32,000 nucleotides of DNA from the NCBI GenBank assembly GCA_046350815.1, contig JAXLZO010000001.1:840001-872000 (forward strand), written 5' to 3'. The DNA is from Candidatus Saccharimonadota bacterium (GTDB lineage: Bacteria > Patescibacteriota > Gracilibacteria > BD1-5 > UBA2023). The translations under genes were made by a program, and so were the position numbers. This document shows positions 1 to 32,000 of the stretch, piece by piece; the stretch's first letter is position 1, and every line of letters starts with the position of its first letter. The notes under the pieces were generated by a model. That model did no database searches and was not told where the DNA came from. It was given only the letters and a program-made list of their open reading frames with translations.

Positions 1-69
1 TATACGATGATAATAAAATACAAGGTGTATGTGTATGGTAGTAAGAATATCACAGTTCTTATGAAAAGT

Positions 70-102
70 AAAAAATACCCAATGAGAAGTTGAGTATTTT
101 TT
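70..102. terminator. Hairpin with A-run/T-run flanks downstream of the minus-strand ATPase gene (possible bidirectional terminator)
   Basis: 13-bp stem aaaaaatacccaa / ttgagtatttttt with one C.A mismatch and a 7-nt loop tgagaag. It lies 36 nt beyond the TAA at 138-140. Confidence 0.45.
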
Positions 103-137
103 GTAGACAAACGGAGTTTTAGTTTTTGGTATAGGTT

Positions 138-2651
138 TTACTTTTTTATAGAACTACCCATTTGATTCTGGGTTGTTGTTTGTTGTGCTAACTTCTTTGC
201 TCTTTCCTCATCTTTCTGAGCTTTGATCTTCTCTTTGTGTGCTTCCTGGTTTTGTTTGAATTTCTTTTCATCATCTGTCACTTTGTTGCCGTAGTCATTG
301 ATTTTTTTCTCTACAAATTCTCGTGGTTTTGCGTATTTTTCTCGAGAAATAGCACGGATTTTTACTGGGTCTTGCTTTGGTACTGTCAGATGATCATTAA
401 TCGGAGCAAAGGTTGTTGCGGAGAATACTGGTGATGGCATACCATCAATGAGAAGTTTTGTATAGATATCATATTTTCTCAGATTTTGGAGGTCTTGTGC
501 GGATATAACATCTTCATCACCCATAACTTCCACCATTTTTGGGGCATCTTCTGGGCCGACTTGAAATGAAATTGTGGATCCTACGTTACCAAATACAGCT
601 CACTGAACTACCTCAGACATCTGAGATATGTATTGATTTGCCATTACAAGTGAGAGTCGATATTTGCGTGCTTCTGAGAGGATGGTTGCAAAGGAATCAG
701 TAGCAAAGTTCTGAAATTCGTCTACATAAAGGAAGAAGTCTTTACGATCTTTTTCAGGAATATCAGCACGAGTCATCGCGTCGATCTGGAATTTCGTTAC
801 CATCATAGATCCGAGAAGAGCGGAAGTATCTTCACCAATACGACCTTTTGAGAGATTGATGATACAGATTTTTTGATTATCCATGATCCATCTGAGGCTG
901 AATGGATTTTTTGGTTGTCCGAGGATATTGCGCATCAGGGGGCTGGAGAGGAATTGTCCAACCTTGTTGAGAATCGGCCCAGCCGCCTCGACCATTTGAT
1001 TCGGTGCCATAGCTTCATACTCTGAGAGCCAAAACTTTTTGAGGAGAGGATCTTTGACTTTATCGATGATTTTTCTCCTATACGACGCATGAGTGAGAAC
1101 CACGGGGATGGACATAATCGTCTCATCACCAACATCGAGAAGTGATAGTACCGTGTTTCTGAGGATGTGTTCCAGACGTGGTCACCAAGAATCTCAGAAA
1201 ATTCTTTTAAAGACACTCACAAGACCAGATGCTACAATAGGCTGCAGATCTCTATGGACACTCTCAAGCATGTTAAATCCGATAGGATAGTTGAGATCCG
1301 TCGGATCAAAAAGTACCACATCATTTGTTCTACTTTTTGGTATCGAAGCGAGTATCGTTTCGGCAAGATCTCCATGCGGATCAATAAGCCCAACGCCGCG
1401 TCATTTCACAATATCATCATAGATCATGTTCTCGAGGAGTGTTGATTTCCCCATACCTGTTTTTCCGATGATATAGACGTGACGACGACGATCGAGAAGT
1501 GGTGAGCCAAAACTTTTTTGAGTTCCTCGAAAATTGGTTTTTCCAATAGGTGTCAGAGTATCATCGTCTTCTATGAGTGGGAGATTCGCTGGTGGTTCGA
1601 ATTTTTTGGAAGTTACCCAATTGATACCGGGAGTTTTGACGTAGAGTGTAGGTAAATGAACGAGACCTGCTACTTCGGCACTACAAAAATACCATGGATG
1701 AAAATGTTCTCGTTTTGCTACTCGATCACCCGATATGGGTGCTATTTTATCTAAGACAAAGCCATTACGATCAGGAAGATTGAATATATTGAGCGCACCA
1801 ACCATTTCTCTGATATGACTCTTCGCTTGGATAGGATCATTCTCATAACTTACGACTGCGAGTGAGGTATAATAACCAAATCATGCGAGTTTTTGCTTGA
1901 TAGCGAGATCGAGATCCTTGTCTCCTTTATCTCATTCCGTATGACGTGTTTTCACATCCTCTGAGGTGGCAGGAGGACTAAAAATCATTCAAAATCACCG
2001 AGTAAAAGCAAAAAACATGCTTACAAGGAGAGCGCTCGATACTCGCAAGAAAAATCCCTTCTCAACTAATACATGTTTATACCAATGGGGGAGATCATGT
2101 GAGAGGAGTTTTTCAATCTTCTTCTCATCTTTCCAATACCGATCAATGACAGGGCTGAAATGTACCTGATAGAGGGATACTTCTCATTTTTTTCCTCGAA
2201 GAAGAGCTGAGGTGAGAGATGAATGCGGGTCTATGCCTTCCTTTTCACTCTTATCTTTGAACGCCGTATACATCTTGATTGGATACGGGTATGGCTCGCG
2301 CAAATGAATATGGCCAACGGTAGCGTGCTCTTGCGGTAGATACTCGTCACGTTCGATAATTTCGATATCGGGATAGTGCGCGAAAAATTGTGATTTCACA
2401 AAATCACAATAAGGCTTCGGTGTAATAAAGAAGAACCGAATTGTCCCATGAACATTCGCGATTTCAAAAGTAAAATCTACCCTGTTCTTCTGATGCTTGT
2501 GAATGCCGAGAATGTTGATTGACTCAATAGAGTGATGGATGATATTGAGGATTTGTTCCGCGACAAAAACACCCTTCTCATTATTTCGATCAACTCGAAT
2601 TTCAAGGATTTGATAAGATCACTGTGTACGTGGAAGGTGTCGGTAGGGCAT
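138..2651 (-). CDS. TraD/TraG/VirD4-family (type IV coupling protein-like) P-loop ATPase, 837 aa
   Basis: Track ORFs 138-536, 600-1115, 1401-1805 and 2184-2399 share one frame and are joined by in-frame TGA (e.g. 600-602, 1401-1403). ATG at 2651, TAA at 138-140. Walker A IIGKTGMGKST, Walker B-like FFLYVDEFQNF. The segments WGPRLEHILRN and AVFGNVGSTISFQVGPEDA read straight through TGA=Gly. Confidence 0.75.
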
Positions 2652-2673
2652 ACGAAAGACGTCTGATTATACT

Positions 2674-29782: not shown

Positions 29783-29819
29783 GAAAAGAGTCTTGGTACA
29801 ATCAAGACTCTTTTCTTTT
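29783..29819 (+). terminator. Strong rho-independent terminator after the obg-to-pilD gene string
   Basis: 13-bp perfect stem gaaaagagtcttg / caagactcttttc (29783-29795 / 29803-29815) with loop gtacaat, followed by a T-rich tail. Confidence 0.75.
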
Positions 29820-29825
29820 AGTGCA

Positions 29826-31325
29826 ATGGTTCAACGACGCAGATGAGATGCCCGTGGGTATTCGTACACAAATGACACTTCGTCTGGAGTTTTATTTTTC
29901 CTCGGTGACCCTCGAGTGAAACTATTAGGTATTTTTTTCGCGACCATCCTTGTGCTCTTTGGGATATATCGCTTTTTTTTCGCGTCAAGTGATGATGGCT
30001 CAATTATACAATCTTCATCACCCATTGTTGCTCTCAAAAGTGCAACGGGATCAGCAACTATTATTGATGCAAAAGGTGGAGTTCGTGATATAAATCAATC
30101 TGCAACACCTTTTCTTTCACAAGATGGTATTCTCAAGGTTTCCCAATGACTTGTGACGCTCAGTGGTACTGGTGTAAAAATTATTCTTGATCGATCATCT
30201 GAAATTGACTACCAAAGAAATGATGACACAAAAATAAATCAGTTCGATCTCAAGAGTGGAAATGCATGGGTTGAGCTATCTACCATACGATCCGAAGTTT
30301 TTGCACTCAAGAATTTTCAGATTATGAGTAGTGCTGACGATAGTGTGCTTATGCTCACTCAAAATGGTATATCGAGTACTGTTGCTGTACTGCAGTGAAA
30401 AGTTTCTCTTTCTACAAAAGTTGCATCACTGACAATTTCAGCTGGAGATATGGCAACACTCTTCGCACAGGATAGTGAAAAGCCTGATTTGAGTGATCGG
30501 ATACAACCTATTTCTGATGCGCTCAAATCGAGTAGCTTAGCTCTTTCTCAAGGGATAGATGACTTTATTCAAGCTATTGCCATGAGGTCATGAGTTTCAT
30601 CAGGTACAACTCTTGCTTCTGACAATACTATTGTTTCTCTCGATAATAATTGAGCATCAATTCCATCTTCATCAGGTGCAGTAATTTTTTGAAAATATCT
30701 TGAAATTACTTCTCCAAAAGATGGATCAACAGTGAACAAAAATACAATAGTTGTGACATGAAAAATATATTCAGATAGCATTACGAAAGTACTTATTAAT
30801 GAAAAACAAGCTATTATTGGCAAGGAAGCAACCTTTTCCCTTGCAGATGTACCACTTGGATCACTTCAAAACACGATTCTCTATAAAGCTTTGAATGCTC
30901 AAGGAAAAATTCTCGATAGTGGTTATATTACAGTAAAAAATCCAACTGGAATAGCACCGGTAACAACAACCACACAATCGAATAACTTTCTCCTTGCAAA
31001 TGAGAAGCTCTACTACATAACAGAGCCAAAAGCGAATCCATATCAAACAACAGAAAAACAGGTTACCATACGAGGTGTAGTACCAAAATGAAAGGTAAAA
31101 TCTATACAGGTGAATGGTTATACGCTCAAGCAATTTCTGCCATATTCAACGACTTGGAAATATACAGCATCGAAAGATGGTGGAAATATGGGAAGTGACC
31201 TCAACCTCTATCATATCGTCTACTATGGTATGAACGGTGAGAATCTTGGGTCTACTCTCTATTCTATAGTTCTTGCGGACAATGAAACCTCTCAAACACA
31301 AGTCGCCACTGGATCATCACGTTAA
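29826..31325 (+). CDS. Hypothetical membrane-anchored, Ser/Thr-rich extracytoplasmic protein, 499 aa (start uncertain; GTG 29916 is the alternative)
   Basis: Fragments 29916-30149, 30153-30398, 30891-31091 and 31110-31325 are in one frame. The gap 30399-30890 reads free of TAA/TAG. N-terminal TM LLGIFFATILVLFGIYRFFF. TAA at 31323-31325. Confidence 0.6.
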
Positions 31326-31992
31326 TTCATTTTATTTTCGCTCATCCCAGTGACTTACACTTATCGAGGTAATGGTGGTTATTGTGGTGGTAACAGCTGG
31401 TATTGTATGAGCGTTTGGTGTTCTCTCAAGTGGACAAAAACTCGCTGCAACTACAACTGATCGAGTACAGGCAATCAATTTTGCTCGAGAGGGGGTTGAG
31501 GCAGTTAAGAATATTCGTGACACCAATTATGCTCAATACCCAGCAAATCCAAGTGATTGTTGGATCGTGAAAGACTATGATTGTGGGTGAGTAAAATATG
31601 AAACCGGATCGTATGTGCTTGCTCGCAAAGATTTTTTGATCTGATGAACAAAGATTTGTGATCACTGTTGGTATCTTTCTGGAACAACCACTTCTCCAAA
31701 TCTTGCAACGAAACCAGATAGTTCAGCTTGGAATACCTACGGGTCGACATATGCACTCGAGTTAGATGGAAGTGGGTATACCATAACTTGATCAACATCC
31801 TCATGAAAACCTATATGTCGAAATAGTACCAATACGGGATGTTTAACACAATTTACCAGAGAAATTGCTCTCAAACGAGTCGAGAATGATACTATTGAAT
31901 TTTCATCTTATGTTCGTTGGCGTGATGCAAATGGAACTATTATGACGGTGGAGCTTCCAATGACCCTCAAAAATTGGCGTACGAAATTCTAA
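31282..31992 (+). CDS. Type IV pilin-like protein (prepilin with class III signal), 236 aa
   Basis: Not in the track. ATG 31282 overlaps the upstream gene by 44 nt. Cleavage motif SSQ-G|LTLIEVMVVIVVVTAGIV with Glu at +5; the -1 Gly is TGA 31351-31353. Cys pairs in the C-terminal domain. TAA at 31990-31992. The start codon choice is uncertain. Confidence 0.72.
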
Positions 31993-32000
31993 ATATTTTT

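Follow-up and report, generated by a model that had tools for sequence, protein, structure and literature searches.

Gene content of the window

The present analysis concerns a 32,000-nucleotide stretch of contig JAXLZO010000001.1 (assembly GCA_046350815.1, positions 840,001 to 872,000 of the forward strand), hereafter the window, and the meaning of the codon UGA in its genes. A first inspection of the letters alone had proposed that UGA is a sense codon for glycine throughout the window, i.e. that translation table 25 of the NCBI applies instead of the standard bacterial code (table 11); we refer to this proposal as the original prediction. Gene coordinates given here are those of a refined set of 28 genes, which covers 91% of the window (GC content 38.9%). 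For the Pfam searches each in-frame TGA was replaced by X, which left the meaning of the codon open. Under these conditions full-length Pfam domains were found to run across TGA codons in the TraG/VirD4-like ATPase, the cyclic nucleotide-binding (cNMP-binding) protein, PilT, RlmN, DnaG, RpoD, GatA, the IS200 Y1 transposase, the HI0933-like flavoprotein, Ung, the ATP-binding cassette (ABC) transporter, Obg and the prepilin peptidase. The genes on which the argument mainly depends are the following (aa, amino acids).

3651..4706, minus strand: PilT/PilU type IV pilus ATPase, 351 aa, 4 TGA, stop TAA; Pfam T2SSE at 170 bits, PDB PilT at E = 7e-82; identical to MFO0764038.1
4846..6660, plus strand: tandem-repeat protein, 604 aa, 23 TGA
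7221..8297, plus strand: RlmN, 358 aa, TGA at 7683, 7719 and 8199; identical to MFO0764041.1
9153..10889, plus strand: DnaG primase, 578 aa, 8 TGA, of which 5 are alignable (4 Gly and 1 Thr in Aquifex DnaG)
10870..12354, plus strand: RpoD/SigA, 494 aa, TGA at 11170, 11740 and 11788
12742..14169, plus strand: GatA, 475 aa, TGA at 12937, 13012, 13723, 13759 and 14014; identical to MFO0764046.1
14337..14756, plus strand: IS200/IS605 Y1 transposase (TnpA), 139 aa, 4 TGA; identical to MFO0764047.1
16958..18244, minus strand: HI0933-like flavoprotein, 428 aa, 8 TGA, 5 of them opposite Gly
19519..20160, minus strand: uracil-DNA glycosylase (Ung), 213 aa, 8 TGA including 19966-19968; identical to MFO0764053.1
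20879..22786, minus strand: ABC transporter ATPase/permease, 635 aa, 13 TGA
23779..25254, plus strand: Obg GTPase, 491 aa, 7 TGA, of which 4 are alignable, all 4 with Gly in Escherichia coli ObgE
28224..29090, plus strand: prepilin peptidase (A24, PilD), 288 aa, 8 TGA; identical to MFO0764062.1
31282..31992, plus strand: type IV pilin-like protein, 236 aa, 7 TGA; identical to MFO0764065.1

Open reading frames and stop-codon use

When the window was tiled greedily with non-overlapping open reading frames (ORFs), table 11 yielded 66 ORFs with a mean length of 113 aa and a coverage of 69.7%, as compared with 32 ORFs, 314 aa and 93.6% when TGA was treated as sense, so that the original prediction was right in stating that the standard code understates gene length. 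Freeing either of the other two stop codons had a far smaller effect on mean length (TAA as sense, 67 ORFs, coverage 78.4%, mean 127 aa; TAG as sense, 69 ORFs, coverage 77.6%, mean 121 aa). Likewise, stop-to-stop ORFs of more than 300 codons numbered 2 under the standard code, 23 with TGA as sense, 4 with TAA as sense and 2 with TAG as sense. A first gene set defined by homology (25 ORFs, 9,313 codons) contained 148 in-frame TGA codons and not a single TAA or TAG, and the refined set contained 156 and none, respectively, with 24 of the 28 genes carrying at least one TGA. All 28 genes terminate at TAA or TAG and never at TGA, as had been claimed for the merged genes, and RpoD, RlmN, Ung, GatA and PilT stop no more than about 10 residues away from where their solved homologues do. 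At 15.9 per 1,000 codons, TGA makes up about 23% of the glycine codons of the window, and counting it as Gly raises the glycine content from 5.25% to 6.84%.

Two genes, 22941-23537 (plus strand) and 8601-9038 (minus strand), carry a TGA immediately before the real stop codon, giving TGA-TAA and TGA-TAG ends. Such ends may have been left by ancestral terminators of the TGA type, which translation now passes by one codon, although with a TGA codon frequency of 1.6% the excess represented by 2 of 28 genes is weak.

For ung, the pilin-like gene and the repeat gene, table 11 left the coding frame without any ORF that reaches 60 aa, and the longest table-11 ORFs over the repeat gene run antisense to it (5257-6492, 411 aa, and 5508-6521, 337 aa), in agreement with the original prediction that the standard-code track misses these three genes and generates antisense artefacts. 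Reading TGA as sense also opens long antisense ORFs of its own, namely 12697-14229, 4966-6621 and 5196-6656 on the minus strand, and the one opposite gatA comprises 510 codons with 16 TGAs. They arise because few of the 915 leucine codons are TTA (56) or CTA (35), as compared with 407 CTC, and because TCA has ceased to be a stop on the opposite strand; gene calling under table 25 could settle on the wrong strand. The preference for CTC is itself unusual for a genome of 39% GC.

Residues opposite TGA in homologous proteins

Nine conserved proteins were each aligned with their best homologue of solved structure, and the residue facing each alignable masked TGA was recorded, with the following result.

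RpoD: G, G
RlmN: G, G, G
GatA: G, N, D, G, G
Obg: G, G, G, G
DnaG: G, T, G, G, G
Ung: F, A, N, G, G, E, G, G
TnpA: K, M, G, S
PilT: P, H, A
HI0933-like flavoprotein: G, E, G, G, A, E, G, G

Glycine thus stands opposite 26 of the 42 aligned TGA positions and tryptophan opposite none. As only about 8% glycine is expected as background (binomial P of about 1e-18), chance is excluded. Summed over the 42 positions, BLOSUM62 scores gave +135 for Gly, +5 for Ser as the next best residue and −96 for Trp. Several of these TGAs occupy hallmark glycines. In RlmN all three lie opposite Gly in both RlmN and Cfr structures, including the one at 7719 within the GMGEP motif; in RpoD, TGA 11740 is the glycine of IQEGN and TGA 11788 likewise falls at a glycine; in Ung, four TGAs stand opposite invariant glycines (Q-G-VLLLN, LW-G, HR-G-F and K-G-E). 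In PilD, positions 28851-28859 read TGATGATGA, which is translated as GGG ahead of the catalytic Asp, and in the pilin-like protein the TGA at 31351-31353 directly precedes LTLIEV, the place of the Gly before the prepilin cleavage site. The positions singled out in the original prediction (7719-7721, 11740-11742, 28851-28859 and, on the minus strand, 19966-19968) are all TGA.

Its wording that TGA occurs exactly where each family has glycine holds for about 60% of the alignable TGAs, which sit at conserved glycines, and fails for the rest, which sit at variable positions; at these 16 positions the best homologue has N, D, E, K, A, S, T, P, H, F or M. Three of its examples belong to the latter class: the TGA of LE-G-HLM in TnpA faces M or L in solved IS200/IS605 transposases, that of K-G-LCPFH in DnaG faces T in the Aquifex primase and that of HTP-G-VANG in Ung faces N in the two best Ung structures. 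Only one TGA of TnpA is at a conserved Gly (LK-G-KS), the other three being opposite K, M/L and S in solved homologues. Glycine codons of the GGN type behave in a similar way. In GatA proteins of 78 standard-code genomes the Gly fraction was 0.63 at the five TGA columns and 0.73 at the 41 GGN columns, as compared with 0.026 elsewhere, and the Trp fraction at the TGA columns was 0. As the TGA columns of GatA resemble its GGN columns, TGA behaves like any glycine codon, often at invariant and sometimes at variable sites.

Scores of glycine and tryptophan translations

In every Pfam or NCBIfam comparison tested, translation of TGA as Gly scored higher than translation as Trp. The Pfam scores were as follows.

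Ung, family UDG: 63.7 bits with Gly, 48.5 bits with Trp
HI0933-like flavoprotein, family HI0933_like: 239.7 bits with Gly, 221.5 bits with Trp
Obg, family GTP1_OBG: 178.9 bits with Gly, 170.2 bits with Trp
TnpA, family Y1_Tnp: 121.5 bits with Gly, 117.4 bits with Trp
PilD, family Peptidase_A24 (cut-off 26.5): 33.1 bits with Gly, 20.1 bits with X, no match with Trp

The pilin-like protein matched TIGR02532 (prepilin cleavage/methylation motif) and PilV when TGA was translated as Gly, and neither when it was translated as Trp.

Exchange of TGA with other glycine codons

The repeat gene provides an internal comparison. Its array (5263-6569) consists of 13.6 copies of a 96 bp (32 aa) unit, KSITGMQ(A/N/H)(G/S)LGIPKIEDLEKLTVWCQANNTEL, arranged as a 192-bp A/B super-unit of which five copies are perfect. 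Where an A unit reads CAG GCA TGA, a B unit reads CAA AAT GGT; besides these three adjacent codons, two silent sites distinguish them. The claim that one repeat column is TGA in one variant and GGT in the other was confirmed: the column is TGA in A units (e.g. 5287-5289), GGT in B units (e.g. 5383-5385) and once AGT, in units that are otherwise near-identical. As perfect 192-bp duplicates, the repeat copies carry no signal of selection.

A comparison with the corresponding loci of relatives at 88-97% DNA identity, L084 (ERZ650309) and L085 and L089 (both GCA_964536125.1), comprised 7,085 codon comparisons. TGA was kept in the relatives at 95 codons. At 18 further sites only one of the two sequences had TGA, and its partner was GGA, GGT or GGG in 12 cases, TCA in three, and TGG, TAA or TAG in none. 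Counting TGA as Gly, 682 synonymous and 343 non-synonymous changes were found. The exchange goes in both directions: TGA 14014 of gatA is GGA in L084, and within the amidase signature GGSS-G-S of GatA the window has GGA at 13189 where L084 has TGA. In the ABC signature FS-G-G-EQ the window has TGA TGA (21191-21196) and L085 has GGT GGA. UGA is thus an ordinary and frequent glycine codon here, present even at invariant or catalytic glycines and exchanging with GGN codons over evolution.

The segment 14823-17531 was 100% identical in Logan assemblies from three sequencing runs; as these three assemblies are independent, the TGAs are not assembly errors. A metagenome scan further retrieved a 2,976-bp contig of a relative at 89% identity.

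Alternative explanations

A reading of UGA as tryptophan (table 4, the code of Mycoplasmatales and of several insect endosymbionts) would open the same ORFs as table 25, and some public pipelines have in fact translated these genes in that way: Logan holds a TGA = Trp translation of the 355-aa hypothetical membrane protein of the window, and W stands at the TGA columns of some database GatA homologues. What separates the two codes is the amino acid. The absence of Trp from all 42 aligned positions and from the TGA columns of the 78 GatA orthologues, together with the strongly negative BLOSUM62 sum for W, speaks against table 4, as do the Pfam scores, every one of which is lowered by W, with two family matches lost altogether. 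Conserved tryptophans of the window are encoded by TGG, sometimes right beside a TGA (LW-TGA in Ung matches LWG; RpoD has ATWW), no switch between TGA and TGG was seen among relatives although a single base change would suffice, and the Trp content would reach 2.4%. Tryptophan is therefore an extremely unlikely meaning of UGA in the window. A reading in which UGA is still a stop codon, and the genes are pseudogenes or their TGAs errors of sequencing or assembly, is only about half as probable as that. Under table 11 every conserved gene does break into fragments, as decay or error would have it; yet the stop triplets found in frame are all TGA (156, with no TAA or TAG), frameshifts are absent, domain matches are full length and three independent assemblies are identical. 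The 95 TGAs kept in relatives and the excess of synonymous over non-synonymous changes point the same way, and the essential genes rpoD, dnaG, obg and gatA all carry TGAs. An equally negligible probability attaches to a local recoding of UGA, by selenocysteine insertion or programmed readthrough, in place of a genome-wide reassignment. UGA is a selenocysteine codon in standard-code bacteria, but in the window it occurs in 24 of 28 genes and up to three times in succession, no gene ends in it, and it aligns to Gly and not to Cys or selenocysteine. An Rfam search of the window matched no family, including selenocysteine insertion sequence (SECIS) elements, which likewise counts against selenocysteine.

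A further possibility accepts UGA as Gly and extends code 25 by reading CGA and/or CGG as Trp. Shulgina and Eddy (2021, PMC8629427) predicted such a code for Absconditabacteria and for some Gracilibacteria; the present lineage is sister to the clade concerned, and CGG is the second-rarest arginine codon of the window after AGG (20 of 375). CGA, in contrast, is the second most used arginine codon (109 occurrences) and is found at invariant arginines, namely at GatA residues 322, 337 and 372 (R in 62-77 of 78 orthologues) and in region 2-3 of RpoD; its abundance and these invariant columns rule out CGA = Trp. The CGG at RlmN residue 333 lies opposite Arg in both structures and that at DnaG residue 377 opposite Lys, and no CGA or CGG was found opposite Trp, although only few of the 20 CGG codons are alignable. 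Overall, we consider the extended variant very unlikely, if somewhat less so than UGA = Trp.

UGA as glycine under code 25

Reading UGA as glycine is supported concordantly by the alignments, the scores of Gly and Trp translations, the switches between TGA and GGN and the proteins deposited in GenBank (see below), and the original prediction is upheld in this respect. The sequence evidence makes it almost certain that the window, a chromosomal segment that probably belongs to a member of Candidatus Gracilibacteria (BD1-5), uses NCBI genetic code 25, with UGA as a Gly codon and UAA and UAG as the only terminators. It resembles the systems for which table 25 was defined (SR1/Gracilibacteria) in that UGA is sense at glycines, UAA and UAG are the sole terminators, the GC content is fairly low (39%) and the genome is small, and no difference from them was found in the window. 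The bacteria that use table 4 (Mycoplasmatales, Entomoplasmatales, Hodgkinia, Zinderia, Nasuia and Stammera) share with it the freed codon, the resulting ORFs and the failure of table-11 annotation, but differ in the amino acid, since the window has no Trp at aligned TGA columns, encodes conserved Trp by TGG alone and loses family score when W is inserted. The extended code of Absconditabacteria agrees with it in UGA = Gly and differs in that CGA is abundant at invariant Arg in the window and CGG, at the few places where it could be aligned, behaves as Arg or another basic residue.

As to mechanism, UGA would be read by a dedicated tRNA-Gly whose anticodon is UCA, and release factor 2 (RF2, encoded by prfB) would have been lost, both by analogy with what is established for the lineage; because of the proposed loss of prfB, nothing would compete at UGA. 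Under code 25, a tRNA-Gly(UCA) would be expected to carry G1:C72, C2:G71, G3:C70 and U73, and the Gracilibacteria/Absconditabacteria clade corresponds to the class JAEDAM01 of the GTDB. A tRNA-Gly(UCA) is the decoder expected for UGA (PMC8629427), and prfB was undetected in any BD1-5 genome available at the time (PMC6851277). With very high probability, the mechanism would be this canonical one. It is improbable, although less so than the extended code taken by itself, that this lineage decodes UGA other than by tRNA-Gly(UCA) and RF2 loss or has undergone a further reassignment of a rare codon such as CGG.

Some observations weigh against this interpretation. No tRNA gene was found either in the window or in its flanks and the loci of relatives, which together amount to about 60 kb and include the Gracilibacteria gatA loci L004 and L005; from loci of TGA-free proteins, the flanks were reached up to about 3.7 kb beyond the right end of the window and 1.7 kb beyond the left. 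The best homologue has a residue other than Gly at 16 of 42 aligned TGAs, though, as noted, GGN codons behave similarly. The case for this organism is built on DNA sequence, and its taxonomic placement would follow from database names and best hits: the best GatA matches (62% identity) carry the name Candidatus Gracilibacteria bacterium, and in a GatA scan of genome contigs the best relative showed 53% identity.

Other genes and features of the window

The remaining genes of the refined set are the following.

138..2651, minus strand: TraG/VirD4-like coupling ATPase, 837 aa, 10 TGA, stop TAA; Pfam TrwB_AAD_bind, DUF87 and TraG-D_C
2674..3648, minus strand: cNMP-binding domain protein, 324 aa, 3 TGA, stop TAG; Pfam cNMP_binding
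6782..7228, plus strand: hypothetical protein, 148 aa, 0 TGA
15819..16886, minus strand: hypothetical membrane protein, 355 aa, 11 TGA; identical to MFO0764050.1 (U0518_04320)
8327-8719, 8601-9038, 18234-19430 and 20328-20666, minus strand: other genes, 0-8 TGA each, stops TAA/TAG
14930-15307, 22941-23537, 25321-25704, 25713-27623, 27632-28240, 29169-29726 and 29826-31325, plus strand: other genes, 0-8 TGA each, stops TAA/TAG

Nine hypothetical proteins of the window had no match in Pfam. The coupling ATPase, the cNMP-binding protein and PilT (138-4706), together with the prepilin peptidase and the pilin-like protein (28224-31992), make up the kind of machinery for type IV pili and DNA transfer that typifies episymbionts of the Candidate Phyla Radiation. 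The TraG-like gene is called at 616 aa in a relative's assembly, as compared with the open frame of 837 codons in the window, and in L089 an additional N_methyl/leucine-rich repeat (LRR) protein lies just left of the segment equivalent to the window.

The tandem-repeat protein has no credible Pfam family, and the exact protein was absent from the public collection searched. Matches to ZNF512, DUF6216 and other Pfam entries contained no significant stretch and look like repeat-driven artefacts. The variable di-residue of the repeat gives the gene a look like that of transcription activator-like effectors (TALE), and in L089, from the relative's assembly GCA_964536125.1, its array is either collapsed or of lesser length.

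The Obg ORF begins with a 44-residue N-terminal extension (23779-23910), which includes a hydrophobic stretch and one TGA and precedes MFIDEV, the conserved start in solved Obg proteins; the true start is uncertain, and public gene calls take in the extension (491 aa).

A protein near-identical to TnpA occurs under three more accessions on the 1.28-Mb contig that also encodes MFO0764047.1 (MFO0763459.1, MFO0763708.1 and MFO0764233.1), and the IS200/IS605 element is thus multi-copy. With four in-frame TGAs, its transposase can be expressed only in a host that has recoded UGA.

Public annotation and significance

The Gly translations of eight window genes are exactly identical, end to end, to proteins encoded on a 1,283,673-bp contig of a Candidatus Gracilibacteria metagenome-assembled genome (MAG) in GenBank (MFO0764038.1, MFO0764041.1, MFO0764046.1, MFO0764047.1, MFO0764050.1, MFO0764053.1, MFO0764062.1 and MFO0764065.1), and the public annotation of this genome therefore already applies table 25. 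The code itself is established: UGA = Gly in Absconditabacteria (SR1) and Gracilibacteria constitutes table 25 (PMC8629427; bioRxiv 10.64898/2026.05.24.727570), which PMC8629427 traces to Campbell et al. 2013 and Rinke et al. 2013, and, according to the account in PMC6851277, proteomic data have validated it (Hanke et al. 2014, PMC4032931). The recoding has thus been known since 2013, with proteomic support since 2014, and it opens no new question here.

Other public records treat the codon differently. The 90%-identity clusters of GatA, RlmN and PilT contain many truncated table-11 products (240, 154 and 121 aa) from Logan, ENA, MGnify and JGI. GenBank contributes to them a 'hypothetical protein' of 259 aa under the name Candidatus Peregrinibacteria (MCA9378138.1 / MCB9805358.1), which seems to be part of a GatA from a MAG to which the wrong code was applied.

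The finding that UGA encodes glycine in this window is correct and important for annotation, but already known, including in the GenBank record of this genome. Its significance is practical and not conceptual. Any table-11 gene call on the window is wrong: conserved genes become fragmented, the ung, pilin-like and repeat genes vanish and long antisense ORFs appear instead, and the same table-11 error is visible in public data.

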